The notes below the pieces were generated by a model, which was not told the DNA's origin, did not search any database, and worked only from the letters and a program-made list of their open reading frames with translations. DNA of 64,000 bases, taken from Candidatus Latescibacterota bacterium. Lineage in GTDB: Bacteria > Krumholzibacteriota > Krumholzibacteriia > LZORAL124-64-63. The position numbers and the translations under genes were made by a program. This document shows, piece by piece, positions 3,694 through 55,245 of this stretch. Where the stretch lies: NCBI GenBank assembly GCA_030658975.1, contig JAUSBL010000105.1, forward strand, positions 10,971-74,970, read 5' to 3'. Numbering within the stretch: the stretch's first letter is position 1; every line of letters begins with the position of its first letter.

Positions 3694-3944
3694 CGGCCGG
3701 CGTGGTCGCAGATCGCGAGGGTCGCGTTCGTGAGGGATTCACGGCGAACCGACCGCCCCCGCCTGAAAATTGATCATCGATCGCAGGATGTGCTAGGATC
3801 AGCCGGTCCAAGAGGGGCGTGGACGGCGATCACGGGTACGCACCCGCCATCGACCCACCGTCCCGGGCCGTCCCCGCCGACCCGAAAGCGCCGTCTCCTG
3901 AACGCATGCGGAGTTCTTCGCACCAGTCGTCAGGAGGTCCTGCC

Positions 3945-6173
3945 ATGGCTACGGCGATCACCGGAATTCCATCCATCTTTCGTGCGGCCCGCGCCTCGAT
4001 CCGCAGGGCGGCGACCGCGGCTGTCTGCGCGCTACTCTGCGCCGGGTTCGCCGGAGCTTCCCGCGTCGAGTGCGTCGACTACGGAGAACACCTGCACTGG
4101 ATCGGCGGCGTCAGCGCGCCCGACGTGGTCCGGGGCGTGGCCGTCTCCGGGAATTACGCCTACGTGGCGTGCGGGACGGCCGGCCTACGGGTGATCGACA
4201 TCTCGAATCCGGCCACGCCGCAGATCGTGGGCGCCGTCGACACGCCGGGCACCGCCAACGGCGTGGCCGTCGCCGGCGCCTATGCCTACGTGGCGGACGG
4301 CGCCTCGGGACTGCAGGTGATCACCGTCGCGAATCCGGCGAGCCCGCAGATCGTGGGCCACGCGACGACGCCCAGCTACTCGCGGGGCGTGGCTGTCTCC
4401 GGCAACCTCGCCGTCGTGGCGAACGACTGGTACGGCGTCCACGCGATCGACATCACCGTTCCCGAGGACCCGCAGGCCGTGAGCGGCGTGGACACGCCCG
4501 GGTCCGCCTACGGTGTGGCCGTCTCAGGGAACTACGCCTACGTGGCGGACGTGACATCCGGCCTCCAGGTGGTCGACATCTCGGATCCGGAGCACCTGCA
4601 GATCGTGGGCGGCGTGGTTCCCGCAGGGGTGTCCGCCTACGGCGTGGCCGTCTCCGGGCGCCATGCCTATGTGGCGGACTTCGGCGCCCGGCTGCACGTC
4701 ATCGACGTCCTGGATCCGGCGAGTCCGCAGGTGGTAGGGAGCGTGGCCACGCCCGGGTCCGCCCGCGGGGTGGTCGTCGCGGGGAGCCACGCGTATGTGG
4801 CGAACAACTTTTCGGGTCTCCTGTCCGTCGACGTGACGAATCCGGCGAGCCCACAGGTTGTCGGGATCGCGGATACGGGCGGCAACGCCATGGGCGTGGC
4901 CGTCTCCGGGGGCTGCGCGTACGTGGCGAGCGCGCTCCTCGGCCTCCAGGTCATCGACGTCACGTATCCGACGAGTCCGCAGCTCGTGGGCGGCGCGGTG
5001 ACGCCCGGCATGGCCCTCGGCGTCACCCTGGCCGGGAGTCGCGCCTACGTGGCGGACGACGAGAGCGGCCTGCAGGTGATCGACATCGCCGATCCGGCGG
5101 CCCCGGAGATCTTCGGCAACGCGGACACGCCCGGCCTGGCGCGGGGCGTGGCTGTTTCCGGGAGCTTCGCGTTCGTGGCGGACGAGAGCGCCGGCCTGCA
5201 GGTGATCGACATCTCCGACGGCAGGAACCCGCAGACCGTGGGCAGCCTGGACACGACGCCCCACTACGCCTACGACGTGTGCGTTTCCGGCGATTACGCC
5301 TACCTGGCGGTGAGCGGAGGCTCGGGCCTCCAGGTGGTCGACGTCACGAATCCGACGAACCCGTACCTCAGGGGCGGGGTGAGCCTCCCCGACGTCGCAC
5401 AAGCCGTGGTCGTCTCCGGAAATTTCGCCTATGTGGCGGCCTGGTCGGCCGGCCTCGTGGTGATCGATGTCTCGAATCCGGCCCTGCCGAGCATCACCAG
5501 CAGCGTGGACACGCCGGGCAACGCCTGGGACGTGATCGTCGTCGGGAACTACGCCTATGTGGCGGACTCGTTTTCCGGACTCCAGGTGATCGACCTCGCC
5601 GACCTGTCGAGCCCTCATATCGTGGGCGGCGTGAGATTGCCGGACGCCGCCCTGGGCGTGGACATCCACGGAAACTACGCCTACGTGGCGGGACGGGAAA
5701 GCGGGCTCCAGGTCGTCGACATCACGACTCCGGCGTCCCCGCAACTCGTGGGTGGAGTGGACACGCCCAACTATTCCGAGGGGGTGGCCGTCTCCGCGAG
5801 CCACGTCTTCGTGGTGGCCAGCGAATTCGGCCTGCAGATCGCGCCGCTGCAATGCGCTGGTGCGACCGCCGCGCCGTCATGGTCGGGCCCGGCGGACCTG
5901 AAGCTGTACCAGAACCGGCCGAACCCGTTCAACCCGCGGACGACCATCGCCTTCGACCTGCCGGAGGCGGCGCGGGTCGAGTTGGCCGTGTACGATGCGG
6001 CCGGCCGACTGGTCCGCACCCTGATCGCGGACCGCGATTTCTCGGAAGGCCACCACGAACAGGTTTGGGATGGGCGAGACCCGTTCGGCAACGAGCTGGC
6101 AGCGGGCGTGTACTTGTACCGGCTGGAAGCCGGCAACCGTCTCGAGACCGGGCGCATGGTGCTCGTGAAATAG
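3945..6173 (+). CDS. LVIVD-repeat beta-propeller protein with a T9SS C-terminal sorting domain
   Basis: AGGAGG RBS and a signal peptide ([38 protein letters not shown]). More than 15 tandem approximately 42-aa repeats of the form [33 protein letters not shown]. C-terminal Por_Secre_tail motif ([39 protein letters not shown]...[22 protein letters not shown]). Confidence 0.85.
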
Positions 6174-6237: not shown

Positions 6238-7959
6238 TCAACGTACCAGCATCATCCGCCGCCGCTCCGCGCCCCGCGGCGTGACCAGTTCGTAGAGATA
6301 CAACCCCGAGGACACATCCCGGCCGCCGTCGTCCCGGCCGGCCCAGTTCACCCGGTGCCATCCCGCGCCGGCCGCCGCCTCGGCCAGGGTGCACACCAGC
6401 TCCCCGGCCACGTCGTAGACCTTCAGGCTGACCGGGCCGGCCCGCTCGAGCCTGAAACCGATCTCCGTGCTGGGGTTGAAGGGGTTGGGCCGATTCTGCA
6501 GCAGGCTGCCGCCTCCCGGTGCGGGCACGACCGATACCGCGGCGCAGGCGGTGCCGAACTCCAGCCCCGGCAGGGCGTCCCCCCCGAAGTCGAAGAGCGT
6601 CAGGTTCTCGTAGGGGTTCCCTGGCCCCCCGTCGACCGGGATGAACGCCGGCTCCCAGTAGATCACCCCGATGCCGCCGGACGTCTCGACGACCCTTCGT
6701 ACGTCCCGCAGGAAATCCCGCTGCCCGAGCGGCGTCGCCGGGTAGCCGCTCTGCAAGTCGCCTTCCCCGGTGACGAAGTTCCCCGTGGCGTCCGCCGCCG
6801 CCAGCGTCCACGGGTACGCCGTCTCGACCACCATCAGCGTCTTCCCGTAGCGCGGCCCGAGGTCCCGCAGGTTCGCCTTCAGTTGCCAGAGCGTACCGTG
6901 CCACCACGGATAGTAGGACAACCCGATCACGTCGTAGTCCACCCCGGCGGATGTCAGCTGATCCAGGAACCAGCGGCAACGGGCGTTGTCGCCCCCCGGC
7001 GCCAGGTGCACGATCAGCTCGGTCGGCGCGCCGGGCGGCAACGCGGTCCGGGCGGCGCCGGCCGCCGCCTGCAGCAGGGAGGTGAGCGCGGCCCACTGCG
7101 CCGGCGTGTCCCATGAGCTGCCCGGCCAGCCCACCTTGCCTGCGTCCCACAGCAGGCCTGCGTCGATCTCGTTGCCGAGCTGCACGTAGCGTGGCGTCAG
7201 CCCCTCGTCGACGAAGCGGTCCACGACGCGCGTTGTGTAAGCGGCCACCGAATCGGCCAGCGCCGCGGTCGGGATGCCCTCCCAGGCGGTCGGCGTCGTC
7301 TGATGGCCGGGGTCGGCCCACGTGTCGGAGTAATGGAGGTCGAGCATCAGCTCGAACCCCGCGGCCTGCAGCCGGTGGGCGAAAGCGACGGTCGCGTCGA
7401 GCCCATGCCACGGCTCGGCCGGCGTGTGCCAGAGCCGCAGCCTCACCAGCCCGATGCCCGCCTCCGCGACGAGCGCGGGCAGCGGCGCGGGATGTCCGTC
7501 GCGGCCGTAGGTCGCGCCGAGCGATTCGAGTTGGGGTACGAAGGACAGGTCCGCCCCGACCACGCGCGTGGCCGGGTCCAGGGTGGCGCTCAGGTCCGCG
7601 AAGAAGACAGTCGGTGGGTCGCCGCCCCCGGCCGGCACCTGCCAGATCCGGTTGGGGATGTCCTCCTCCCAAACCTCGGCGCCGCCGCTGCGGACGATCA
7701 GGAACTTGTAGGCGATGCCGCCGGCGGGCAGGTCGGAGACGGTCTCGTAGATTCCCTGGCCGGCGCCCGCCTGCAGGACGCGCTGCCCGCCGGCCCAGCC
7801 GTCGAAATCGCCGCGCACCTCGACTAGGTCGCTCGACGGGTCGAAGTAACCGGCGGCCAGGTAGGGTCCCATGTTCACCCGGAACGTGACGGGCGCGGCC
7901 GGGACCGCGGCCGGCAGCAGGGCGGCGCAACAGCAGATCCAGAGTAGCGAATGGCGCAC
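6238..7959 (-). CDS. GH53 arabinogalactan endo-beta-1,4-galactanase with an N-terminal CBM-like domain and a T9SS CTD
   Basis: GH53 motifs: VRLRLW, LDLHYSDTWADPG, VQLGNE (catalytic acid), IGLSYYPWW, VVETAY (nucleophile), IYWEP. N-terminal CBM20/CBM61-like fold (FRVNM...VEVRGDFDGW...YKFLIV). C-terminal [16 protein letters not shown]...GLYLYELV...RMMLVR. GTG start with an AGGTGG RBS. Confidence 0.85.
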   Translation of the reverse strand: MRHSLLWICCCAALLPAAVPAAPVTFRVNMGPYLAAGYFDPSSDLVEVRGDFDGWAGGQRVLQAGAGQGIYETVSDLPAGGIAYKFLIVRSGGAEVWEEDIPNRIWQVPAGGGDPPTVFFADLSATLDPATRVVGADLSFVPQLESLGATYGRDGHPAPLPALVAEAGIGLVRLRLWHTPAEPWHGLDATVAFAHRLQAAGFELMLDLHYSDTWADPGHQTTPTAWEGIPTAALADSVAAYTTRVVDRFVDEGLTPRYVQLGNEIDAGLLWDAGKVGWPGSSWDTPAQWAALTSLLQAAAGAARTALPPGAPTELIVHLAPGGDNARCRWFLDQLTSAGVDYDVIGLSYYPWWHGTLWQLKANLRDLGPRYGKTLMVVETAYPWTLAAADATGNFVTGEGDLQSGYPATPLGQRDFLRDVRRVVETSGGIGVIYWEPAFIPVDGGPGNPYENLTLFDFGGDALPGLEFGTACAAVSVVPAPGGGSLLQNRPNPFNPSTEIGFRLERAGPVSLKVYDVAGELVCTLAEAAAGAGWHRVNWAGRDDGGRDVSSGLYLYELVTPRGAERRRMMLVR

Positions 7960-8117
7960 GGTGGTCCACCTGTCGATACGGGGGCGGGCATGTCAGCCGG
8001 ATCCGGAACCACACCATTATAGACCATGCCGGAGTAGGGCGCGGCGCCAGCGCCCGGCACAAATGAGACTTATCCTATGGGGATCCGTCCCTTGAGGCCA
8101 TCCGCCGAGGAGCCCCC

Positions 8118-10829: not shown

Positions 10830-12035
10830 TCACTCCCCGATGACGATCGTGTAGGACCGGTTGACCGTCTGCCCTCCCTGCGGGCAGGAGTCGTAGACGG
10901 TGACGCGCACTTCCCAGCTCCCTGCCGCTTCCGCGGTGGGCGTACCGGTCAGCACTCCCGAGGAGAGCGTTTCCAGTCCCGGGATCGGCTCGGTGGGGAT
11001 GGCCCAGCGGGTGACCGTACCCTGGCCGCCGCTGGTCGTCGGTTCGAAATAGTAGAGCTGGCCGATGCTGCCGTCCGGCGGCTGCCCGCTGGTGATCACC
11101 AGCGGCGGGCATTCGCCGACGCCGGCGCGGGTCAGCACGTCCACGCAGTTGCCGCTGCAGTAGGGGGGCGTCGTGCTGCGCCAGGTGGAGCGCTTGGTAG
11201 CCGTGTCGGGCCCGTCCAGGGTCAGCGTACCGCGCTCGATCTCGTCGTCGTCGACCCGCTCGAAGTGGAAGGTGTCGCCGCAGACGAGGCCGGTGTAGGT
11301 GTCGCCGCCCTGGTCGACGTAGCTGGCCTCGTCGCCGTCCTGGGTGACCGTGAGCGTGACGTCGCCGCCGAACGGTTCGCCGCAGCTGTTGCCGCACTCG
11401 TAGGTGCCGGTCCAGGTCCCGGCGAAGTCTTCGGGCGCGGCGCAATTGCCCTCGGCCAGGTCCACCGCCACGGCGTCGACGCTGAACTCGGCGTCGAAGT
11501 TCGCGGTGACGGTCAGGCACAGGATCATCGAGCCGCGGTTGATGATCTGCAGCGTGGGACCGTCGGCGACGGCGGTCTCGGGCGAGACGACCAGCGACGT
11601 GCCGTGACTGACGGTGAACGGGCCGTAGAAGATGCCGGACTCGCACACGGTGGCAGGGTCGTCGCCGATGCGGATGGATGCCGTGGCGCCGAGGTCGTCG
11701 GCCGAACCGAAGAGACTGGCCACCTTGCGGGCGATCAACTGCCACAACGGGACGCCGCCGACCTGCACGTGGTCGAGCGTCGCCGTGACGTCGATCTCGG
11801 CGGCGGTCACCGGCGCGAGGTCGGGCGGCAGCTGGAGTGTGAACACGAGCGTGGAGGGCACGCCGGCTGAGAGTTGGACATCCGAGACGGCGCCCTCGAG
11901 CTCGGCCACCACGCGCTGCGGCTGCGGATCCTGCGGTTGGCCGGGTCCTTCGTCGCCGCAGCCGCCGCAGAGCGACCCCACCGCCAGAATCAGTGCGCCC
12001 AGAATCAGGTAGGCCGTCGGTCGTCGACAGTTCAT
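10830..12035 (-). CDS. Lipoprotein with a C-terminal putative Ig (He_PIG) domain
   Basis: GAGGAG RBS. Lipoprotein signal MNCRRPTAYLILGALILAVGSLCGGCG. C-terminal IPGLETLSSGVLTGTPTAEAAGSWEVRVTVYD matches the He_PIG pattern. Confidence 0.65.
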   Translation of the reverse strand: MNCRRPTAYLILGALILAVGSLCGGCGDEGPGQPQDPQPQRVVAELEGAVSDVQLSAGVPSTLVFTLQLPPDLAPVTAAEIDVTATLDHVQVGGVPLWQLIARKVASLFGSADDLGATASIRIGDDPATVCESGIFYGPFTVSHGTSLVVSPETAVADGPTLQIINRGSMILCLTVTANFDAEFSVDAVAVDLAEGNCAAPEDFAGTWTGTYECGNSCGEPFGGDVTLTVTQDGDEASYVDQGGDTYTGLVCGDTFHFERVDDDEIERGTLTLDGPDTATKRSTWRSTTPPYCSGNCVDVLTRAGVGECPPLVITSGQPPDGSIGQLYYFEPTTSGGQGTVTRWAIPTEPIPGLETLSSGVLTGTPTAEAAGSWEVRVTVYDSCPQGGQTVNRSYTIVIGE

Positions 12036-12311
12036 CGCACAGCTCCTCGATTCGGCATCCAAGGGAAAATCTACCGCCGAAACCAGGAGCATATCGGACC
12101 GAATTACTTGCGGTCAATGGGGTGCCGGACACCATATGACATGAATTTATGATATGACAATGTTCTGCCGGGAGCGCGGGACCCTCGGGACATCGTGTGG
12201 TGAAGTGGCACGCCGGTTGATCGGCCCCTATCATGGCATGGCCGAGGCAGTGATGATTGGATCGCGTCGGCAACAACGTCCAACCCGACCTCAGGTCCTG
12301 CGGAGCCGATC

Positions 12312-13013: not shown

Positions 13014-13772
13014 TCGATGCGCCACATTAAAGTCCTGCTGACGATCCTCTCCCTCGTCCTGGCCGTGACCGCAGTGTCCCAGCCGACCGCCGCGTCGGCG
13101 TCGGCCTACTCGATCACCTGGCTGGACATGTCGCCGACCGCGATCGGCTCGGTGGTGCCCAACGGCTCGGTCTTCTTCGTGCCGGGCATCGGCAACGTCA
13201 CGGTCACCTACTCGATCCCCGCCCACTGGACGCACGGTCGCAACCAGAACCCGCTGTACACGGTGGGCAGCGTCACCAGCGGGTTGGATACGTACTCGTG
13301 GTCCAACTACGAGCATTTCGGCACGATCTTCGTTGACGGCTTGCTGGGACCGGAGTCGGCCACCATCACCTACACGTTCGCGGGCACGCTGCCGGCGGGC
13401 TCGGTCTACGTCGGGACCATCGGCCTCGGCGCCACCACGAGTTTCGGCGGCGGCGCCTCGGTCACGACCGTCAACCAGAACGGCACGTTCCTGGGCGACT
13501 ACATCGGCGACGTCACCGCAGGCGCCTCGCAGTTCACCGGCGGCGCGGGGACGTTCTCGGTGCAGAACTCGGTCACGGGCGCCGGCGGCGCCAATCCCTG
13601 GTGGAACACGCAGCTGGGCGTCGTGCGCATCGATGACGCGGTGTCGAGCATCACCGTGCACCAGAGCCTGATCCGCGGCGACGGGATCGGCGTCAACATC
13701 GGCTTCGTGCGCGACGGGATCGTCGCCAACGAGGCCGCGGCCTGGGGCGACGTCAAGGCTCTGTTCAAGTAG
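13014..13772 (+). CDS. Secreted hypothetical protein ending in the ANEAAxWGxVKxxFK motif
   Basis: AAGGAG RBS. Signal peptide MRHIKVLLTILSLVLAVTAVSQPTAASA. Gly/Ser/Thr-rich beta-type body. C-terminus IVANEAAAWGDVKALFK is shared with the genes at 20202..20969 and 27167..28105. Confidence 0.7.
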   Translation, partial: SMRHIKVLLTILSLVLAVTAVSQPTAASASAYSITWLDMSPTAIGSVVPNGSVFFVPGIGNVTVTYSIPAHWTHGRNQNPLYTVGSVTSGLDTYSWSNYEHFGTIFVDGLLGPESATITYTFAGTLPAGSVYVGTIGLGATTSFGGGASVTTVNQNGTFLGDYIGDVTAGASQFTGGAGTFSVQNSVTGAGGANPWWNTQLGVVRIDDAVSSITVHQSLIRGDGIGVNIGFVRDGIVANEAAAWGDVKALFK

Positions 13773-15635: not shown

Positions 15636-17108
15636 TCAACGCACCAGGGTCATCCGTCTTGATTGCCGGGTCCCGTCCTGCTGCAGCGTGTAAAGGTAGA
15701 CCCCGGCCGGCGCGGCCAGACCGTTGTCGTCGTTGCCGTCCCACACGACCGTGCGGTCCCCGGCGGCCTGCACCTCGTCGACGAGGGTGCGCACCCGATG
15801 GCCGGCGAGGTCGAAGATGCCCAGGGTCACCCGGGCGCCGTCGCGCACCGCACGGTAGGCGATCGTCGTGCGCGGATTGAAGGGGTTGGGCGTGTTGCCG
15901 GCGAGCAGGGCGATCGGAGCGGCCGGTTCGCCTGCCGCCGTGGACGCGTCCAGGCGGAGATGGTAGATCTCGCCGCGGCTGCGGTCGACGGCGTACAGTT
16001 CGCCGGCCGCGTCGCGGCCGATGGAAGCGAGGTTGCCCCAGCCTCCGTCGGGTTGCAGCGTGGCGGACCAGTTCTGGGCGGCGCTCACACCGTCGCCGCC
16101 GTCCCACACCACCGACCAGATCAGGTCGCTGCAGAAATCCGCGAAGAAGAAATGCCCGTTCAGGCCGGGATTGCCCGCGCCCCGGTAGACCTGGCCACCG
16201 GAGATCGAGCAGCCGCTCGGCGCCGGGCCGGAGTGCCGGTACTCGAAGATGGGCAGGGTGAGGCCCGTGAAGTCGCAGCCGCTCGCCGGCTCGTGGCACA
16301 AAGAGCCCTCGGTGATGTCCCACCCCCAGTTCAGGCCGCCCAAGCCGGCTGGCTGCACGTTCACTTCCTCGACGCGGGTCTCGCCGACATCGGCGATGTA
16401 GAGGTCGCCGGTCCCGGTGTCGAAGGCGAAGGTCCACGGATTGCGCAGACCGAAATGCCAGATCTCGTCCAGCGGCGCCGAGCCCACGAACGGATTGTCG
16501 GGCGGGACGGCGTAGCCGGTCGGCGTCGAGACGTCGAGGCGCAGCATCTTGCCGAGCAGTGTCAGGGGATCCTGCGCCCGCTCTTCCGGATCGCCGCCGC
16601 CGCCGCCATCGCCGAGGCCGATGTACAGCATGCCGTCCGGTCCGAATTCGAGATGGCCGCCGTTGTGGTTGTCGGAGGGTTGCGTGACCGCCAGGATGAT
16701 CTCCGCGCTCGCCGGGTCGGCGGCATCGGGATCGGCGGAAACCTCGTAACGGACGATGCGGGTGTTGCCGCCGTTGTTGGTGTAGTTGATGTAGAACCGG
16801 CCGCTCTGCCCGTAGTCGGGAGCGAAGGCGAGACCGAGCAGGCCGCGCTCTCCGGATGCGCCGGTCAGGGCGGTCGCGTCAAGGAAGACTCCGAGCGGGT
16901 CGCCGGTCCGCGAGAACACCTTGATCAGCCCGTCCTGCTCGACGACGAAGAGGCGGTCGTCGTCCGGAGGCGAGACCAGGCGAACCGGCTGGTCCAGGTC
17001 GCCGATGACCAGTTCGACGCCGATCTGCGCTTCCGCGACGGCAGGCGGCAGGATCAGGACACCGAGAAGAATCACCAGCAACGGTGATGGTTTGCTATGA
17101 ATGCGCAT
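15636..17108 (-). CDS. Soluble PQQ-dependent (sGDH/sorbosone dehydrogenase-type) sugar dehydrogenase with a T9SS CTD
   Basis: Signal peptide. GSDH-family motifs (GLLGLAFAPDY, SDNHNGGHLEFGPDGMLYIGLGDGG, HFGLRNPW). C-terminal [14 protein letters not shown]...GVYLYTL...RMTLVR. Confidence 0.8.
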   Translation of the reverse strand: MRIHSKPSPLLVILLGVLILPPAVAEAQIGVELVIGDLDQPVRLVSPPDDDRLFVVEQDGLIKVFSRTGDPLGVFLDATALTGASGERGLLGLAFAPDYGQSGRFYINYTNNGGNTRIVRYEVSADPDAADPASAEIILAVTQPSDNHNGGHLEFGPDGMLYIGLGDGGGGGDPEERAQDPLTLLGKMLRLDVSTPTGYAVPPDNPFVGSAPLDEIWHFGLRNPWTFAFDTGTGDLYIADVGETRVEEVNVQPAGLGGLNWGWDITEGSLCHEPASGCDFTGLTLPIFEYRHSGPAPSGCSISGGQVYRGAGNPGLNGHFFFADFCSDLIWSVVWDGGDGVSAAQNWSATLQPDGGWGNLASIGRDAAGELYAVDRSRGEIYHLRLDASTAAGEPAAPIALLAGNTPNPFNPRTTIAYRAVRDGARVTLGIFDLAGHRVRTLVDEVQAAGDRTVVWDGNDDNGLAAPAGVYLYTLQQDGTRQSRRMTLVR

Positions 17109-17269
17109 GGAAGAATATCCTCGTCGTTGGTGGGGATGGAGGCGGAGGTCGTTCTGGCAGGATAGGCAGGGCCGGTCCGGCCGGCCACCGCCCGGGACGT
17201 CCTTGCCGAGGTGGCTCCCCGCCGCGCCATGCGATATGATCGACGATGCACCTCCTCAAGGAGCTGATC

Positions 17270-20201: not shown

Positions 20202-20969
20202 TCAACGATAGATCGCTTTGACCGCTCCCCAGGTGGCCGCCTCGTTCGCGACGGTGCCCGGCAGACCGCACTGGATGCGGATCGTCGCGGTCGTGCTGCC
20301 GGACATGCCGGCGAGAGGGCCGCCCGGGCTGCCGACGAAGTCGATCCGGTAGGTGATGTCGAAGAAGCTGTCGACGGCCCAGCCGCCCCCGCCGCCGCCC
20401 CCGACCATGGTGAGCGTGGTGTGGCCGGGACTGGGCATGCCGAAGCCGCCGCCCGCGGTGATCCGCAGCAGGTCGAAGTCGGGATCGCCGGGCGGCAGTT
20501 GCCCCTGCATCAGGTACAGGTCATGCGGGAACGACTGCACGGGTTCTCCGGGCAGACGCGGTCCCGCGTGGCACTCGTAGAAGATGTCGAAGAACGCCGG
20601 GCGGAAATAGCCGGCGAGCATGCCCGATCCCGTCATCTCCATGTGGATCGGGGCGTGGAACTGCTCGATCTCCCCGCCGAGCGTGCCGCCGGCCTGGTAT
20701 GTGATGTCGAAGAACGAGTCGATGATCGACTCGATCGCGATCGTCGTGCCGGGCGGCAGGCCGTCGATGATCATCATCGGCTGCAGCGTCACGTAGGCGC
20801 ACGGGTTGGGCGGATAGTCGATCGTGCCGGAGCCGTTGTCGGGCACGATGCATTCCGTGGGCGTCAGGGCGGCGGCGGGCGAGACCAGCAGGAGCGCGGC
20901 GGCGGCCAGGACCAGCGCGGCTTGCGCGCCGGCGGGCGGCGACCTGTACGACTTCATGATCCTCGTCAT
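20202..20969 (-). CDS. Secreted hypothetical protein with internal DSFFDITY repeats, a poly-Gly tract and a C-terminal ANEAAxWGxVKxxYR motif
   Basis: Signal peptide (MTRIMKSYRSPPAGAQAALVLAAAALLLVSPAAA). C-terminus TVANEAATWGAVKAIYR. An alternative start lies 12 nt downstream. Confidence 0.65.
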   Translation of the reverse strand: MTRIMKSYRSPPAGAQAALVLAAAALLLVSPAAALTPTECIVPDNGSGTIDYPPNPCAYVTLQPMMIIDGLPPGTTIAIESIIDSFFDITYQAGGTLGGEIEQFHAPIHMEMTGSGMLAGYFRPAFFDIFYECHAGPRLPGEPVQSFPHDLYLMQGQLPPGDPDFDLLRITAGGGFGMPSPGHTTLTMVGGGGGGGWAVDSFFDITYRIDFVGSPGGPLAGMSGSTTATIRIQCGLPGTVANEAATWGAVKAIYR

Positions 20970-21186: not shown

Positions 21187-22701
21187 TCATTTCAGCATGA
21201 CGATCCGCTGCGTCTGACTTGCGCCCGCGGTCTCCAGCCGGACGAAATAGACGCCGCTGGCCGCCGTCGCGCCGTCGTCGCTGCTCCCGTCCCAGACCGC
21301 CAGGTGTTCGCCCGCCGCCAGGTCGTCGCGGCGCAGCGTGGCCACGCGCCGGCCGGCCAGGTCGTGGATGCTCAGGTCGATCGGGCCGCCGTCGCCCAGC
21401 GTGAAGCGGATGCTGGTCGCGGGGTTGAACGGGTTCGGTTCGGCCGGATGCAGGCGGGTGGTTCCCGCCATCGAGGGCGCGGCCGTCACGGTCCCCACGC
21501 TGAAGAGGTGCTCGACCGTCTGGCCCTGGAACGTGACGCGGAACTTCCAGACACCGTCGTCGCCGAAGGGCAGGTACCAGCCCCAGTACCACCACGACGC
21601 AACGTAGTGGGGGACGTTCAGCCATGCGGTCCATTCCTGCCAGACCGCGCCGTCCGGCTTCAGGATCTGATAGGTGCTGATCTGGTTCTGCAGTTGGTCG
21701 CGGTAGTAGGTGGCGAAGTAGACCGGATCGCCGGCCTGGAATTGGGTCTGCTCGTTGGTGATTTCGGTATTCGGGCAGCTCGGCCAAACGGGCGGCGCGG
21801 AGTGCGTGCGCAGGGCGTTGATCGCCGGGTCGTAGTAGGGGCGCTGGTCGGCCCACCAGCCGTCTTCGTTCAGCGAGTTGCAGGGGCCGCTCCAGGGATC
21901 GACCAGCTGGCCGAGGTTGTCGTGCAGCTCGAAGTGCAGGTGAGGGCCGGTGCTGTTGCCGCTGCTGCCCACGACGCCCAGGTACTCGCCCGCGGCCACC
22001 GCGTCGCCGACGATCTTGGCGGTGGTCGACCCGCTCTTCATGTGTCCGTACCAGGCGGTCGATCCGTCGTCGTGCTGCACGTAGACGGCGTTCCACTGGC
22101 CGCTGCCGAAACCGCAGTTGTGGTCGAAATGGCCGTCGTACTTGCCGACGATCACGCCGGAGGCCGCAGCGACGACCTCGACATCATCGTTGTCCATCTT
22201 CAGCCAGGAGAAGGGCCAGGTGAAGATATCGGTCCCCGAGTGGTTGTAGCCGCCGGACAGGTCGTAGGTGCGCGTGCCGCAGTTGTAGTCCAGCAGGTGG
22301 TTCGGGTAGGTCGCGTCCTGGTCCACGTAGTTCGAGATGCCGTGGTAGCCCGGATCGTCGAGGTGGGCGGCGGCCCGCAGCGGCCACTGCAGGAGCACGC
22401 CGGCGGCCTTGTCGACCGAGTCGGGCAGAAGCCCCTGCGCGCGCAGGGCCGCGATGTTCGCGGCCAGGTAGGATTCGATCTCGGCGCGCTGTTCGGGCGT
22501 GACGCAGGGCACGTCGCGGTCGCTCTCCCAGTAGCCGTGCGCCGCAGCGACCGGCGGGTCGGCGGGCGGTTGCCCCAGACCGGCGGCGTGATCCCGCGAC
22601 ACCTCGACGATGCGCGCCAGGGACGCCGGCGCCCAGCAGAGGGAGAGCAGGGCCAGCGCCAGCGGCAGCAAGCGCGGCGTGCGGTCGAAGCGGTGGGTCA
22701 T
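21187..22701 (-). CDS. M23 family metallopeptidase with a T9SS CTD
   Basis: Signal peptide. M23 HxxxD and HxH motifs (YNHSGTDI, GSSGNSTGPHLHFELHD). C-terminal AEPNPFNPATSIRFTL...GVYFVRLETAGASQTQRIVMLK. Confidence 0.85.
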   Translation of the reverse strand: MTHRFDRTPRLLPLALALLSLCWAPASLARIVEVSRDHAAGLGQPPADPPVAAAHGYWESDRDVPCVTPEQRAEIESYLAANIAALRAQGLLPDSVDKAAGVLLQWPLRAAAHLDDPGYHGISNYVDQDATYPNHLLDYNCGTRTYDLSGGYNHSGTDIFTWPFSWLKMDNDDVEVVAAASGVIVGKYDGHFDHNCGFGSGQWNAVYVQHDDGSTAWYGHMKSGSTTAKIVGDAVAAGEYLGVVGSSGNSTGPHLHFELHDNLGQLVDPWSGPCNSLNEDGWWADQRPYYDPAINALRTHSAPPVWPSCPNTEITNEQTQFQAGDPVYFATYYRDQLQNQISTYQILKPDGAVWQEWTAWLNVPHYVASWWYWGWYLPFGDDGVWKFRVTFQGQTVEHLFSVGTVTAAPSMAGTTRLHPAEPNPFNPATSIRFTLGDGGPIDLSIHDLAGRRVATLRRDDLAAGEHLAVWDGSSDDGATAASGVYFVRLETAGASQTQRIVMLK

Positions 22702-22933
22702 GGCGAGATCCCTTCGTGACGGCTTGCGAGTCCGAGACTGCCGCAAATGAAGTCCAATCATGTCCTATTTATCGCGGATTGACAAGAGGCAGCCCCCGCT
22801 GCGGGCCAGAGTGCCCGGATCGATGGTCGGCTGATATGCTATATTCAAAACCCACTGCGGCCGACGATCGGGGGTCATCGGCCGGAGTCTCGTCGCGATG
22901 CACGCTCACCAGCCGCCAACCAAGGAGCCGACC

Positions 22934-25150
22934 ATGCGCCGGGTGTATCGAGTCCGTTTCGACGCCGTGATCCGCCGCGCCGCCCTGCGCCTCTGCCTGC
23001 CGGCGATCCTGTTCATCGCCGCCGGCGCCTTCGCGCAGGACTGCCTCGACTACGCCGGACTGCCGCACGTGATGGGCAGCGTGAACGTCTACGGCGCGCG
23101 CGCAGTGGCCGTCGCGGGCGATCACGCCTACTTCGCCTGCGGCGAGTACGGCTTCAGGGTGGCGGACATCAGCGATCCCGCCTGGCCCCAGCTCGTCGCC
23201 TACCTGCCCACCGGCGACTGGGCCGACGACGTGGCCTACATCGCCGGCCACGCCTACGTCGCCGACCGCCAGGGGGGACTGAAGATCTACGACGTCTCCG
23301 ACCCGGCGGCGCCCGAACTGGTCCGCACCATCACGACCGGCAGCTACGTGTTCGGTGTCGCCGTCGCGGGGGACCGCGCCTATCTCGTGGACCACAACGG
23401 CCTCAAGGCCGTCGACATCACCGTGCCGGCCTCGGCCGCGGTGATCGGTTCGCTGCCGATCGCCGGCTACCCGGCCAAGATCGACGTGCAGGGCAACCTC
23501 GCCGGCATCGCCGCCGGCTCCTACGGGCTGGTCCTGGTCGACATCACCGACCCGACGGCGCCGGTCCTCCGGGGTTCGCTGCCGCTATCCGGCCACAATC
23601 CCGACGTCGACCTCGACGGGTCGCGGGCCTACCTGCTCGGCGACGTCGCCGGCCTGCGCGTGGTCGACATCTCGAACCCGGCGGCGCCCGCGCTCGTCGG
23701 CACCCTCGACGTCAACGAGGATTTCGTCTACGACCGCCGGCTGGAATGCCGCTGGCCCTTCGTCTACACCGTGCACGGACGCGGCATGAACATCATCGAC
23801 GTCACGGCGCCGACCGCGCCCGTGCTCGCCTGCAAGGTCGGCATCGGCGTCGGCGTCTTCGACGGCGAGGGGGCCTTCGGCGTCACGGTCACCGAGGGCA
23901 AGGCCTGGGTCGCGGCCGACGCCGGCGGCCTGCAGGTCGTGGACGTGGCGGATCCCTACGCCACGGCGTTGTCCGGAACCTGGACGTGCCCCGGTTCCGG
24001 TCCCACCGACCTCGCGATCCGCGACGGACTCGCCTACGTCACACACGGCGGCTCCGGGCTGCAGATCCTCGACCTGGCCGATCCCGATGCGCCGACGCTG
24101 GTGGGAGAGGTCGGGACCGACGACACCGCCTACCATGTCGCGCTCGCGGGCGACCACGCCGTGGTGACCGACAACTCGTTCAAGCTCTACATGATCGACG
24201 TGTCCGATCCCGCCGACCCCGCGGTCGTCGGCACGATGCCGCTGTACGACATCGTCAACGGCCTGGCCGTGGTCGGCGACTACGCCTACGTGTCGGTGAG
24301 CTGGACGGGGGTCCTGATCGTCGACATCTCCGACCCGGAGAACCCCACGCATGTCTCGACCGAGTGGACGATGTGGATGCCCGGCCAGATCGTCGCCGAG
24401 TACCCGCTGCTCTACGTCGCCGGCTGGAACCAGGGCCTCCACATCCTGGACGTGAGCGACCCGGCCAACCCCTATGTGGTCGGCAGCGACTGGGCCGGCG
24501 GTCAGCCGGGCGGCATCGCGCGCTACGACCACTTCGTGTTCATGGCCCGCGCCGGCGTCGGCCTGCAGGTGATCGACGTCGCCGACCCGTCGTCGCCAGC
24601 CTGGGTGCGCGACTACGTGCTGCCGGGCGACGCGACGAGCATGGCCGTGGACGGCGATCTGCTCTACGTGGCCAGCCCCTTCGCGGGCCTGCAGGTGCTC
24701 GACGTTTCCGACCCCTTCGCGCCGCGACTGATCGGCACTGGTGCGACCGGAGGCGAGCCGCGGTCGGTGGTGCTGGGGGCCGGCCGCGTGTACCAGGCCG
24801 CGGAGTGGGGCGCGCTGGAGATCTTCCTGCCGCAGTGCGCCGGCGGCACGCCGGTCGGCGAGACGCCCCTGGCGCGCGGCGGGCTGACGGCGTACCCGAA
24901 CCCCTTCAACCCGAGCACGACCATCTCCTTCTCGCTGGATGCGCCGGCGGCGGTCGAACTCGCGATCTACGACCTCGGCGGCCGGCGCGTGCGCGGGTTG
25001 CTCAACGGACCATTCGCGGCCGGCGCCCACGCGACGCCCTGGCGCGGCGACGACGATGCCGGCCGGGCGCTGCCCTCCGGGATCTACCTGGCGCGGCTGG
25101 TCGTGGGCGGCAGGCTGCAGTCGCACTGGAAGCTGTCGCTGGTGAGGTGA
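22934..25150 (+). CDS. LVIVD-repeat beta-propeller protein with a T9SS CTD (paralog of 3945..6173)
   Basis: AAGGAG RBS and signal peptide. Repeated AVAGDHAYxAxxxxGLxVxDISDPxxPxLVG units. C-terminal YPNPFNPSTTISFSL...GIYLARL...KLSLVR. Confidence 0.85.
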   Translation: MRRVYRVRFDAVIRRAALRLCLPAILFIAAGAFAQDCLDYAGLPHVMGSVNVYGARAVAVAGDHAYFACGEYGFRVADISDPAWPQLVAYLPTGDWADDVAYIAGHAYVADRQGGLKIYDVSDPAAPELVRTITTGSYVFGVAVAGDRAYLVDHNGLKAVDITVPASAAVIGSLPIAGYPAKIDVQGNLAGIAAGSYGLVLVDITDPTAPVLRGSLPLSGHNPDVDLDGSRAYLLGDVAGLRVVDISNPAAPALVGTLDVNEDFVYDRRLECRWPFVYTVHGRGMNIIDVTAPTAPVLACKVGIGVGVFDGEGAFGVTVTEGKAWVAADAGGLQVVDVADPYATALSGTWTCPGSGPTDLAIRDGLAYVTHGGSGLQILDLADPDAPTLVGEVGTDDTAYHVALAGDHAVVTDNSFKLYMIDVSDPADPAVVGTMPLYDIVNGLAVVGDYAYVSVSWTGVLIVDISDPENPTHVSTEWTMWMPGQIVAEYPLLYVAGWNQGLHILDVSDPANPYVVGSDWAGGQPGGIARYDHFVFMARAGVGLQVIDVADPSSPAWVRDYVLPGDATSMAVDGDLLYVASPFAGLQVLDVSDPFAPRLIGTGATGGEPRSVVLGAGRVYQAAEWGALEIFLPQCAGGTPVGETPLARGGLTAYPNPFNPSTTISFSLDAPAAVELAIYDLGGRRVRGLLNGPFAAGAHATPWRGDDDAGRALPSGIYLARLVVGGRLQSHWKLSLVR

Positions 25151-25993: not shown

Positions 25994-27061
25994 ATGAATC
26001 GACGGTCGTATCTCGGTGGCGCTGCGTGCGTGCTCGCTGTTTTCGTGCTCCTGACCTGTTGCGGTCCGGTCCGGGCCGAACTCATCGTCGACGGCGGGTT
26101 CGAAGCGGGAACGCCGGAATTGAGCCTGCCCGACGTGTTCTTGATCTGGGCGGGGGATCGCACCGCCACAGTCCCGGCGATGAGCGGGATCACGCCCGCC
26201 GAGGGCGTCCGGATGCTGCAGTTCATCAACACGAGCTGGACCCAGCAGGGCGCGAGCGGCGCCACGAGCAGCGACCTGTGGCAACTGGTCGACGCCGCGC
26301 CGTTGCGCGGGCAGAACCTGTTGCTGAGCGCCCGCTTCAACCGGGTGCAGGTCGACGCCCAGACGGACACGCGTTTCGCGCTGAACATCTACGCCTTTAC
26401 GGGCGCTCCAGCGAGTTTCGACAATAACGATCCGAACCTGCCGGCGAGCATCGGTCACGAGAACGCCCAACTCCTGAGCGACGCAGACCCGGCGACCTGG
26501 GAAACGGTCGCCATCGATTTCGCGGTGCCGGCGAACGCCGACTACCTCGGCGTCTCGGTGTCGGCCGCCGAGAACATCCACAACGACTCCTCGGGCACCG
26601 AACTGGACGGGCATTTCGCCGACGCGGTCGAGCTCGGCGTCGACTGCAACGGCAACGGGGTCTTCGACGCCGTGGAGATCGCCGGCCACCCCAGCCTGGA
26701 CTGGAACGGCGATGGCGTCATCGACAACTGCCAGCAGGGGATGGGTGTCGTCGGCGCGCCGTCCGCAAACTCCGGCCGCGACCGCGTCACACTGTGCGGC
26801 GCCAGCCCGAATCCCTTCAACCCGGTCACGACCTTGGCCTTCGACCTGCCTCGCCCGATGGTCGTGTCGCTGCGCGTGTACGACGTGTCGGGCCGATTGG
26901 TGGCCGGCCTGCTGGACGGCGAAACCGCGCGGCAGGGCCGCAACGAGGTCGCGTGGCGGGGGCGGGACGCGGCGGGCCGGGCGGTGCCGTCGGGGGTCTA
27001 CTTCTATCGTCTCGAGGCGGAAGGGAACGCCGCGGTCGGGCGCATGACCCTCTTGGAGTAG
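25994..27061 (+). CDS. Secreted hypothetical protein with a T9SS CTD
   Basis: GGAGGT RBS and signal peptide. Dockerin/EF-hand-like segment CNGNGVFDAVEIAGHPSLDWNGDGVIDNC. C-terminal ASPNPFNPVTTLAFDL...GVYFYRLEAEG...RMTLLE. Confidence 0.75.
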   Translation: MNRRSYLGGAACVLAVFVLLTCCGPVRAELIVDGGFEAGTPELSLPDVFLIWAGDRTATVPAMSGITPAEGVRMLQFINTSWTQQGASGATSSDLWQLVDAAPLRGQNLLLSARFNRVQVDAQTDTRFALNIYAFTGAPASFDNNDPNLPASIGHENAQLLSDADPATWETVAIDFAVPANADYLGVSVSAAENIHNDSSGTELDGHFADAVELGVDCNGNGVFDAVEIAGHPSLDWNGDGVIDNCQQGMGVVGAPSANSGRDRVTLCGASPNPFNPVTTLAFDLPRPMVVSLRVYDVSGRLVAGLLDGETARQGRNEVAWRGRDAAGRAVPSGVYFYRLEAEGNAAVGRMTLLE

Positions 27062-27166: not shown

Positions 27167-28105
27167 ATGAACCCTCGCGCTCTCGTGCTCGTCATCGCCG
27201 TTCTCGCGGCCTTAGCCGGCGGCGCCTCCGCCGCGGAACTGTCCAACCGCGGACCCTACGGCGAGTTCTTCTTCGACCCGGCCACGGGACTCACCTGGTG
27301 CGACCCCGACGTGCTGACGGGCACGGACCGCGCCGCGCTCGACGTCTTCGTCACCCGCAACTCGACCGGCTGGGCCTGGGCCACGAGCGCGCAGATCGAC
27401 GCGTTGCTGGGCAGCACGGCGCCGGCCGGGTCCGATCTCGTGGACGTCATGGGCGCTCCCCAGTTCATCGTGGGCGCCGGCGGGCCCCGCTGGATCGGCT
27501 ACTATGCGGGCACCTTACCCGATGGCTGGCTGATCCAGTCGGACACCGAGCCGTACGATGTCCTGTCCCAGTCCGGCGGCCAGGGCGGCGTCGAGGCCTG
27601 GGGCCCCGGCGGCTGGCTCGTCAACGCCGCCGACCCGACCACGCTGCCCCGCCTCGCGGATCAGGGCGCTCACCGGCAGCTCTTCCACGACGAGAGCTCG
27701 GGCCTGTACTGGTGCGACCCGTCCCTGTTCGTCGGGTTCACCCGCGACCAGGTGACGGACTGGCTGGCCGCCAATCCCGGCTGGCGCTGGGCCGCCGCCG
27801 CCGAGGTCGCGGCGCTGGTCGGCCAGCTGTCCGTGGGTGATGTCTCCCTGGTCGAAGTCATGGGCGCGCCGCAGTTCTGGGCGGGCGTCGGTGAGCCGCG
27901 CTGGATCGGCTACTACGAGCAGGCCGCCCAGCCCGACGGGCTGCTGCTGGAGGCCAACATCGAACCCTACTTCCACATCGTGACGAACTACGGCACCCAG
28001 TCGTCCGCGGCGGGCTGGAACCCCGGCGCCTGGGTCGTGACCGCGGGCGCGCCGACGGCTGCGGCGGAAGCGTCGTGGGGAGAGGTAAAGAGTATCTATA
28101 GGTGA
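27167..28105 (+). CDS. Secreted hypothetical protein built from two tandem approximately 150-aa repeats, ending in the ANEAAxWGxVKxxYR-type motif
   Basis: GGAAGGAG RBS and signal peptide. The two halves align (LTWCDPDVL...VMGAPQFIVGAGGPRWIGYY... and LYWCDPSLF...VMGAPQFWAGVGEPRWIGYY...). C-terminus AAAEASWGEVKSIYR. Confidence 0.7.
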   Translation: MNPRALVLVIAVLAALAGGASAAELSNRGPYGEFFFDPATGLTWCDPDVLTGTDRAALDVFVTRNSTGWAWATSAQIDALLGSTAPAGSDLVDVMGAPQFIVGAGGPRWIGYYAGTLPDGWLIQSDTEPYDVLSQSGGQGGVEAWGPGGWLVNAADPTTLPRLADQGAHRQLFHDESSGLYWCDPSLFVGFTRDQVTDWLAANPGWRWAAAAEVAALVGQLSVGDVSLVEVMGAPQFWAGVGEPRWIGYYEQAAQPDGLLLEANIEPYFHIVTNYGTQSSAAGWNPGAWVVTAGAPTAAAEASWGEVKSIYR

Positions 28106-34189: not shown

Positions 34190-34358
34190 GACAACATGGT
34201 ATCAATCGAATCCTGATTGGCTACAAATTTAGTCCGAAATTCTCACTCCGCGGTGACCCACCGGACTGGATTCCTCCGTTATCCCTCGTGAACAGGGCTG
34301 CCCCGGCGCACCGCCGCGGGTGGCAGGAATCGCAGTTCCGTCCGGCAGGAGGTCCGCC
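34190..34358. promoter_or_regulatory. Divergent promoter region between the ECF sigma operon and the secreted-protein/giant-protease operon
   Basis: Locally AT-rich. Palindrome CAATCgaatcctGATTG at about 34212-34228. TGAAC-type ECF -35-like element at about 34294 on the plus strand. Confidence 0.35.
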
Positions 34359-34820
34359 ATGTCCAGATACCAACAGTGGGTTACGAGCGCGGTCGTGCTC
34401 GTGGCCATCTCGTTCAGCGTCCCCGCCGCTGCCCAGACCGGGAAGGCGCCGGCCGACACGGGGGGCGTCCTGATCGTACCGGATGCGGCCGCCCTGGATG
34501 CCCCGGCGCCTGCGCCGTCCACGCCCCTGGAGCGGGAGGTCGCGGCGATCCGCGCCACCTACCGGACCCGGCTCGCCGAACTCGTCGCGGTCTACGCCGC
34601 CGCCCCGGACGCCGCCGCCGCGTCGGCGGCGCAGCGCGAGATCTCGGCCCACAAGCAGAAGCTCGAGCTGGACCTGCTGGGCCTCCAGCTGCGGTTGGCG
34701 CGCGAGCGCAACGCCACCGACGCGATCGTGGAGCTCGAACAATCCCTGACGGCCGCCCGCGCGCGGCTGGTCGCCGACACCGGTCTCGACGTCCCGGCGG
34801 TCCCCGCCGCCACCCGCTAG
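34359..34820 (+). CDS. Secreted Ala-rich coiled-coil hypothetical protein
   Basis: AGGAGG RBS and signal peptide (MSRYQQWVTSAVVLVAISFSVPAAAQ). Ala/Leu/Glu/Arg-rich helical C-terminal half. Lies 14 bp upstream of the giant HExxH gene. Confidence 0.6.
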   Translation: MSRYQQWVTSAVVLVAISFSVPAAAQTGKAPADTGGVLIVPDAAALDAPAPAPSTPLEREVAAIRATYRTRLAELVAVYAAAPDAAAASAAQREISAHKQKLELDLLGLQLRLARERNATDAIVELEQSLTAARARLVADTGLDVPAVPAATR

Positions 34821-34834
34821 CAGGAGGACCCGTC

Positions 34835-53224: not shown

Positions 53225-53231
53225 GGCGTGG

Positions 53232-54995: not shown

Positions 54996-55245
54996 GGCGC
55001 GCGTCCTCGTGCGGTCGCCGGGGCGTGTCGGGATCACGGCGTGCAGATGGCGATTCCGGCCGGCGGCGTGCCGCGGCGGCCTGCATGGAATTTGGTGAAT
55101 CCTCACACATGAGGGGGGCGGGGGCAAGGGGGATCGGCGGTTGCGGGCCGGTTGACGCCGGGGCGCAATTCCGCTATGGACTAGCGGATCGTCGAGGAGA
55201 CGAGCGAATCCCAGCCCCGACGGCCCGCGTCCCTGAAGGAGTCCC

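Follow-up and report, generated by a model that had tools for sequence, protein, structure and literature searches.

Introduction

The LPXTG, PEP-CTERM, GlyGly-CTERM and MYXO-CTERM signals and the C-terminal domain (CTD) of type IX secretion systems (T9SS) each led to the finding of a dedicated envelope machine. The signals of the PEP-CTERM/exosortase and MYXO-CTERM/myxosortase systems are located at the extreme C terminus, occur in several copies per genome and are present on signal-peptide proteins that are otherwise unrelated. We report here on a short C-terminal tail with the same properties, referred to below as the WG tail, which was detected on three proteins (P1, P2 and P3) encoded by a 64-kb window (the whole stretch of 64,000 nucleotides from contig JAUSBL010000105.1, 69.3% GC) of a Candidatus Latescibacterota bacterium. 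A sequence-only reading of this window had drawn attention to the shared ends of these proteins and had suggested that they may define an undescribed secretion or attachment tag with a dedicated processing enzyme. A literature search on the motif, on secretion in Eisenbacteria and Krumholzibacteriota and on new C-terminal sorting signals found no prior description, and the tail is apparently undescribed so far.

Seven attributes of short C-terminal sorting signals have been set out by Haft (preprint, 10.1101/2023.06.07.544157). The WG tail has five of these, being located near the C terminus, occurring several times per genome, containing at least three invariant residues and being carried by proteins that mostly have signal peptides and are otherwise unrelated. 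The two attributes that it lacks are a hydrophobic transmembrane (TM) helix after the motif and a terminal cluster of two to five basic residues (mostly Arg). AlphaFold2 (AF2) models contained only a helix of 7 to 11 residues in the tail and no TM segment, and its mean hydrophobicity was negative. The tail thus differs from PEP-CTERM and MYXO-CTERM signals in having neither a TM segment nor an Arg cluster, and the tripartite architecture that defines this class is absent. No match on the tail was obtained with PF07589, TIGR02595 or any other CTERM model.

Results

Six-frame translation of the window yielded three matches to WG.[VIL]K..[YF][RK] and no more, and in all three the Trp was located 9 residues ahead of the stop. 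The matches form the ends of P1, P2 and P3 (Table 1), which have a tail of about 17 residues in common that reads P-V-x-T-E-x-S-T-W-G-x-V-K-x-L-Y-R-stop. An N-terminal Sec signal peptide was visible on each of the three proteins, while the bodies formed three singletons in BLAST clustering, with no mutual similarity. No C-terminal TM helix was found in P1, P2 or P3, whether in the sequences or in the AF2 models, and scans of these proteins against Pfam and NCBIfam (E ≤ 10) produced no family match. These results upheld the sequence-only reading, which had described near-identical ends on three signal-peptide proteins with otherwise unrelated bodies, had noted the lack of a TM helix and had been able to match the tail to no named sorting signal; no Pfam or NCBIfam model falls on it. 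Two details were altered. The stop of P1 at 13772 stood, while the start had been placed one codon early, at 13014, where the ATG at 13017 is the likelier initiation codon; NCBI protein P0249 (251 aa) is 100% identical. Of the motif as originally worded, ANEAAxWGxVKxxYR, the WGxVKxxYR core was retained and the "ANEAA" part proved to be specific to a lineage and not general. P3 was additionally observed to be an internal tandem duplication of two repeats of ~140 residues, which match no family and share the strings "...G[LT][TY]WCDP...", "[VL]V[DE]VMGAPQF" and "PRWIGYY".

The position of the tail was examined in one genome per species (GTDB representatives) using a DNA pattern for T-W-G-x-[VIM]-K-x-[LIM]-Y-R that contained no stop codon. 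At least 126 matches in at least 119 loci were obtained; the carrier and locus counts given below rest on the matches listed. Among the 126 listed, 109 lay directly before a stop, 10 had a single residue between motif and stop, 5 had two to five such residues and 2 were internal, so that 124 were within 5 residues of the stop. The chance of an immediate stop is ~3/64 (~5%), which gives a binomial P of ~1e-125. With a looser motif in open reading frames (ORFs) having at least 60 upstream codons, 152 of 155 occurrences were within the same distance. The same pattern applied to viral contigs served as an empirical null: 16 loci were found, of which 9 were ordinary internal matches, mostly in one low-GC phage protein family, indicating that the pattern itself has no bias towards stops.

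Both of the listed internal matches came from a single contig of a "Patescibacteria group" metagenome-assembled genome (MAG; L086, JBBTRH010000024.1), on which two minus-strand ORFs contain RSTWGAIKALYR. These ORFs are tandem paralogues with a near-identical signal peptide and a leader of ~60 residues, including "...KPA[IV]RSTWGAIKALYR", followed by ~200 aa of differing bodies, one of which has "PPHIHFSVH" and is M23-peptidase-like by eye. These matches could be due to chance or to use of the same peptide by an epibiont of the candidate phyla radiation.

A 17-position profile of the tail alone, built from the window tails and those of the P2 family, was then used in an exhaustive search of 1.84 billion representative proteins. 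There were 86 matches at E ≤ 0.001, and the motif was within 14 residues of the C terminus in 83 of them. In a local test this threshold recovered only ~2% of true tails, and hence the tagged representative proteins probably number in the thousands. Several tagged genes were frequently present in one source: two to four were detected in each of 31 sources (30 of the 119 listed loci, which span up to 8 kb, and the window), and the same MAG was matched on several contigs even by the narrow DNA pattern. The tail was also retained among relatives of P1, P2 and P3 down to ~45 to 50% body identity. Of the 42 relatives in the P3 family, ~33 had the strict form of the tail (W at -9), at body identities as low as ~45%, and a degenerate form was seen in most others.

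The genome scan provided 102 complete carriers, in 92 of which a simple heuristic identified a Sec-type signal peptide. A lipobox-like string was present in only 4 of 96, and the median carrier length was 243 aa. When signal peptide and tail were removed from 99 carriers, the bodies formed 59 clusters, between which BLAST detected no similarity (E < 1e-5). Recognisable bodies included lamin-tail domains (LTD; 8 carriers), beta-helix/NosD, CBM20, CHRD, DNRLRE, CAP and cupredoxin domains, a PepA-like flocculation protein and an ExeM-like nuclease, which, as judged by family, are typical extracellular or surface modules. In Pfam and NCBIfam scans of 98 carriers, no model covered the shared tail. 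Among the matches listed, almost all record titles named Candidatus Eisenbacteria/Eiseniibacteriota, Krumholzibacteriia or "Latescibacteria", with a few from Gemmatimonadota, "uncultured Fibrobacteraceae" and unclassified MAGs. The tail is therefore found well beyond the three window proteins, in at least 59 body families unrelated by BLAST and in more than 100 MAG loci, and in each of the searches, including the one with a tail profile that the sequence-only reading had proposed, it was overwhelmingly at the C terminus and not inside proteins.

The most telling evidence of the analysis came from homologous bodies with different endings. In the P1 family, the tail was kept in 94 of the best 120 relatives. 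The body closes with the strand "...RGDGIGVNIGF", after which there is either the WG tail or, in about 20 relatives, a "VPEPATLALL...RRRR"-type signal resembling PEP-CTERM or MYXO-CTERM at the same junction; one of these relatives matches PF07589 (PEP-CTERM) and one was named MYXO-CTERM by its source. The P2 family comprised 1066 matches; among the best 120, a terminal [ST]WGx[VIL]Kx[LI]Y[RQ] that places W at -9 was present in ~65. Here four endings were seen in the same slot after the body "...GSTTGTIRMQCG": the WG tail, a T9SS-type CTD (PF13860), a PEP-CTERM signal (PF07589) and a TM-plus-basic anchor. The CTD-bearing members include one Eisenbacteria protein, P0103. The similarity extends to the cargo, as both the WG tail and the PEP-CTERM/MYXO-CTERM signals are carried by small beta-proteins with no assigned function, PepA-like proteins and LTD proteins. 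These alignments indicated that the tail and recognised surface-sorting signals take each other's place, and that in P1 they do so at an identical junction.

The swap also bears on whether the tail has anything to do with sorting. A C-terminal degradation, quality-control or oligomerisation tag could be envisaged, as self-association is compatible with all data here and PDZ-domain proteases and receptors recognise peptides at the extreme C terminus. A terminal Arg, however, is atypical of PDZ ligands, the tail stands in for bona fide anchors on homologous bodies, and it has been kept on stable, diverse families across deep divergence. We regard a function outside sorting as very improbable.

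Variants of these endings were seen among P2 relatives. Five (P0016, P0021, P0034, P0043 and P0044) have a TM-less "...F.DGFE[ST]G[DN]TS.WS...P" in place of the WG tail, which may represent another terminal tag, so far unrecognised and belonging to other lineages. Others (P0076, P0086, P0091, P0108 and P0114, and P0055, P0082 and P0083) have dialects of the tail, reading "S[TS]F[GS]x[VL]KxLY*" (F for W and no terminal R) or "PWSxVKxLYKN*". Loci of the Krumholzibacteriia type often have one added acidic or amide residue (YRD, YRE or YRN). Such dialects would be the pattern expected from co-evolution with a lineage-specific partner.

The general consensus of the tail was C-x-P-[VT]-P-[TV]-[ER]-x-[ST]-[TS]-W-G-x-[VIL]-K-x-[LI]-[YF]-[RK], and positions outside the search pattern extended it to C-x-P-[VT]-P-[TV]-[ER]-x-[ST]-T-W-G-x-[IV]-K-[SA]-L-Y-R-COOH, with a Cys 8 to 10 residues ahead of the T in ~60 of 108 tails. 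Conservation was assessed on 151 distinct tails from protein searches, which are free of the DNA pattern but were chosen by a looser motif that fixes W and restricts other positions. In these, G was present in 144 (S in 7), K in 149 (R in 2), Y in 131 (F in 20) and R in 143 (K in 5, Q in 3). With G, K, Y and R near-invariant and W fixed by the motif, the tail appears to be under purifying selection. The protein ends 7 residues past the W-G dipeptide, with Lys at -5 and one terminal Arg.

In the AF2 model of P1, which is numbered from 13014 and hence one residue ahead of the ATG-13017 protein, pLDDT was >95 in the body to about residue 231 and <50 for residues 237 to 242, and a helix was predicted at 241 to 251. 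The P2 model had a mean pLDDT of 85.8 and a body that resembles 8-stranded barrels; 10-residue blocks of the core were mostly >90 to about residue 230, pLDDT was <50 at 240 to 243, blocks from 241 averaged 48 to 51 and a helix was predicted at 248 to 254. As two unrelated models agree, the tail of P1 and P2 is predicted to be an appendage outside the fold that consists of a disordered linker and a short helix. Overall, these analyses showed an anatomy in which a Sec signal peptide precedes a folded extracytoplasmic domain, which can be of nearly any type, followed by a flexible linker rich in P, T and E (~8 to 10 residues, often just past a Cys) and a helix-prone 10-residue [ST]-W-G-x-[VIL]-K-x-[LI]-Y-R at, or a few residues from, the free C terminus.

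A short terminal helix in the models, a net charge of about +2.3 and the presence of W and Y would be compatible with a generic physicochemical anchor, that is, a cationic amphipathic peptide that lies on a membrane leaflet or on anionic polymers (lipopolysaccharide, exopolysaccharide or DNA) with no receptor, in the manner of the MinD and PBP5 helices; repeated copies, described below, would add avidity. Membrane-targeting helices of this type have a high helical hydrophobic moment and a hydrophobic face. The helices of MinD and FtsA conserve a pattern and not the identity of residues, whereas five specific residues of the WG tail and their distance from the C terminus are near-invariant. Moreover, the hydrophobic moment (muH) was 0.47, compared to 0.37 ± 0.17 for shuffled tails, 28% of which had at least this value, and mean hydrophobicity was slightly negative. 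An amphipathic membrane-targeting helix was downgraded on these grounds, and a receptor-free anchor is considered improbable. An outer membrane protein beta-signal, in which a terminal aromatic residue (F, Y or W) closes the last strand of a transmembrane barrel, had been suggested by the barrel-like body of P2. It was rejected, as 143 of 151 tails have Arg as their last residue, the models place the tail outside the fold and barrels are a minority among the bodies. The terminal residue also differs from that of an Lpp-type peptidoglycan tether (...YRK-COOH), in which an L,D-transpeptidase links the epsilon-amine of the C-terminal Lys to mDAP, being Arg and not Lys in ~95% of tails; by analogy, an Lpp-like tether through the invariant Lys at -5 might be conceived of as a remote possibility.

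Several proteins had more than one copy of the tag. P0163 has four tandem copies at its C-terminal end and P0165 and P0167 have two each, while P0172 is a duplicated unit of body plus tag. In one family (P0175, P0183, P0214, P0216 and P0233), one copy directly follows the site of signal-peptide cleavage and a second is located at the C terminus. The multicopy proteins, which also include P0196, belong to an uncharacterised family with no Pfam match, and P0163, P0165 and P0172 are lipoproteins by lipobox.

These copies were informative as to whether the tail is cut. If it were a cleaved signal, a dedicated sortase-like transpeptidase or protease would cut the P-V-P-T-E linker and move the cargo to a surface polymer. 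Consistent with this, the tail has five of the seven attributes listed by Haft, the linker P-[VT]-P-[TV]-[ER]-x-[ST] is semi-conserved upstream of the invariant core and the tail replaces a PEP-CTERM signal at an identical junction. Signals of the tripartite class have a cognate sorting enzyme that strictly co-occurs with them across genomes. In contrast, the tail lacks a TM helix that would hold the substrate at an enzyme embedded in the membrane, the 119 listed loci contain no recurrent protease or transpeptidase gene close to the tagged ones, and copies in tandem or at the mature N terminus would be pointless or destructive if all were cut. Obligatory C-terminal cleavage is hard to reconcile with such copies, which fit docking with avidity, and we favour non-covalent docking over obligatory cleavage by a sortase-like enzyme, which seems unlikely. 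The processing enzyme envisaged in the sequence-only reading is, if anything, the less likely of the two. A truncated PEP-CTERM signal was also considered as a candidate and was rejected, a "PEP" string being present in the linker of 1 of 84 carriers.

Recurrent neighbours of the tagged genes were T9SS-CTD proteins, in 32 of the 119 listed loci, and common genes of the Ser/Thr-kinase-TPR type. The window neighbours were unrelated (a type III polyketide synthase, GGT, GNAT, NmrA, DUF212 and a cytochrome c-like protein). Seven other window proteins end in a FlgD-Ig/T9SS-type CTD of ~85 residues (PNPFNP...GVYLYRL...RMxLV[KR]), in agreement with the sequence-only reading; six match PF13860 and the seventh aligns with them. 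The six that were scanned with Pfam were large enzymes or repeat proteins (LVIVD beta-propellers, GH53, glucose/sorbosone dehydrogenase and M23 peptidase) or had no recognisable body domain. Three further ORFs of the window with no Pfam match are included in Table 1.

Table 1. Positions of the tail-bearing proteins, CTD-bearing proteins and unassigned ORFs in the window
Feature	Position	Strand	Remarks
P1	13017..13772	+	Small secreted beta-sandwich protein (signal peptide, body, linker, tail, stop); from ORF and translation
P1 tail	13719..13769	+	IVANEAAAWGDVKALFK; stop at 13770-13772
P2	20202..20969	-	Small secreted beta-barrel-like protein; tail-bearing
P2 tail	20205..20255	-	TVANEAATWGAVKAIYR; stop at 20202-20204
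P3	27167..28105	+	Secreted protein with internal two-fold repeat; tail-bearing
P3 tail	28052..28102	+	PTAAAEASWGEVKSIYR; stop at 28103-28105; C-terminal end reads AAAEASWGEVKSIYR
FlgD-Ig/T9SS-CTD cargo	3774..6173		
FlgD-Ig/T9SS-CTD cargo	6238..7992	-	
FlgD-Ig/T9SS-CTD cargo	15636..17255	-	
FlgD-Ig/T9SS-CTD cargo	21187..22761	-	
FlgD-Ig/T9SS-CTD cargo	22835..25150		
FlgD-Ig/T9SS-CTD cargo	25994..27061		No recognisable body domain
FlgD-Ig/T9SS-CTD cargo	34292..39361		1689 aa; outside the six scanned with Pfam
Unassigned ORF	10830..12113	-	427 aa, coding-type GC3; between a PRiA4_ORF3-like gene and a DUF212/PAP2 gene, just upstream of P1
Unassigned ORF	52022..53356	-	Large, coding-type GC3; ends "...AFTLVYEF", resembling an outer-membrane beta-barrel signal
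Unassigned ORF	53232..55505	-	Large, coding-type GC3

The abundance of CTD proteins in the same genomes raised the possibility that the WG tail is a minimal T9SS signal, a drastically shortened CTD that the cell's own PorV/Sov, and possibly also its PorU, would read. Secretion by way of a type A CTD depends on PorV, Sov and PorU. Like the CTD (type A; here PF13860, FlgD_ig), the tail would be presented on an intermediate that is exported by Sec, is soluble and lacks a TM anchor, and the two are interchangeable on the same body families, even within Eisenbacteria (P0103). Natural T9SS CTDs may be only 43 to 55 aa in length, and the last 22 aa of Hbp35 were reported to be the sole part that GFP absolutely requires in order to be secreted and attached (PMC11969387). 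However, a profile-profile comparison (hhalign) of the tail with the window CTDs gave a probability of 1.2%; homology to the local CTD was rejected on this result, and the sequence-only reading had likewise seen no resemblance. PF13860, PF18962 and TIGR04183 had no match in P1 to P3 (E ≤ 10), no CTD model was present among the families of 98 carriers and no carrier tail matched PF13860 or any other T9SS model. The CTD is an Ig-like beta-sandwich of ~85 aa (type A signals in general span about 45 to 100 aa), whereas the WG tail has ~17 aa, with a linker and a helix predicted in place of beta-strands, and when the two consensuses were inspected, nothing in the tail corresponded to motifs B, D (GxY) and E (basic) of the CTD. 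N-terminal and tandem copies also misfit a CTD. Finally, the tag cargos are small non-enzymatic beta-proteins, in contrast to the large enzymes and repeat proteins on the window CTDs, which suggests that CTD and WG tail divide labour between them. A minimal T9SS signal is, in our estimation, rather unlikely.

WG-tail proteins were also encoded on seven predicted viral contigs of IMG/VR (L125, L127, L129, L131, L132, L133 and L135; 55 to 69% GC). L135 is a genuine phage region, with a portal protein (1e-102), a major head protein (3e-94), a head-tail joining protein and a minor tail protein. A large tail protein adjoins two tagged genes on L131, and L125 encodes a phage DNA polymerase. Signal peptides were present on some of the phage carriers (L131:5719-6420 and L132). 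Phages that infect these hosts may make use of the tag system.

Discussion

This series of analyses supported the suggestion of an undescribed C-terminal secretion or attachment tag, through the terminal position of the tail, the 59 unrelated body families, the signal peptides of the carriers and the swap with known signals. From these sequence comparisons and the structural models, we consider it probable that the WG tail serves Sec-exported proteins as a portable address label or anchor, specific to the lineage, that is recognised by a receptor for sorting or anchoring. Carriers would be exported via Sec, after which the tail would stay exposed and be read sequence-specifically by a conserved envelope partner in diderms of the Eisenbacteria/Krumholzibacteria type. 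Because the tail has no TM segment, recognition would occur on a soluble periplasmic or surface intermediate and not in the inner membrane as in exosortase-type systems. The partner would then retain the cargo at, or sort it to, the cell surface or matrix, so that the tail would do the job performed on homologous bodies elsewhere by PEP-CTERM, MYXO-CTERM, TM-plus-basic anchors or the T9SS CTD. Docking would be non-covalent, and added copies of the tag would provide added avidity.

Two systems offer functional analogies for such docking. The peroxisomal PTS1 signal, a C-terminal SKL peptide read by the TPR domain of PEX5, is similarly a very short unstructured C-terminal peptide that is recognised uncleaved on unrelated folded cargos; it differs in being eukaryotic and cytosolic and has no sequence relationship to the WG tail. 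Dockerins tether diverse secreted proteins non-covalently to a scaffold through cohesins and, like the tag, are terminal, portable modules for which extra copies raise avidity. They are, however, folded, Ca-binding domains of ~70 aa and not a linear peptide of 10 to 17 residues.

A number of observations weigh against a receptor-read tag of exported proteins. No partner, receptor or enzyme was found to recur in the 119 listed loci (up to 8 kb), and the P-[VT]-P-[TV]-E linker, which is semi-conserved, might just as well be a site of cleavage. The phage carrier encoded on L125 and L127, which is metallophosphoesterase-like by eye (LTGDAH and GHGHAYE motifs), has no signal peptide, and hence the link between tag and export may not be a strict one. 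Restriction of the tail to lineages of the Eisenbacteria/Krumholzibacteria type is a conclusion that we infer from a sample of genomes and from a minority of labelled proteins. The host phyla are also uncultured.

A more far-reaching version of the receptor-read tag is put forward only tentatively, as a possibility that we hold to be short of an even chance. The WG-K-YR tail might be the address label of a previously unknown post-Sec pathway in diderms of the Eisenbacteria/Krumholzibacteria clade and, as a short linear peptide that contains no TM segment and forms no folded domain, the first sorting signal of this kind in bacteria. Such a pathway would have its own receptor or translocon that reads the tail as PTS1 is read, would serve dozens of cargos per genome in parallel to the T9SS and would be exploited by phages of the clade that encode tagged proteins near their tail genes.

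The WG tail shows the genomic hallmarks of a C-terminal sorting signal, in that it has many unrelated secreted carriers, occurs several times per genome and is swapped with known signals. What is new is its architecture, a linear peptide of 10 to 17 residues with no TM helix and no fold. If the proposed role is correct, the profile hidden Markov model of the tail would be a precise handle for finding the partner by phylogenetic profiling, annotation would be improved for what are probably many metagenomic "hypothetical proteins", and biotechnology might gain a portable tag of very small size. Above all, the tag would mark the surface or matrix proteome of two almost uncharacterised phyla that are globally distributed in soils and sediments.

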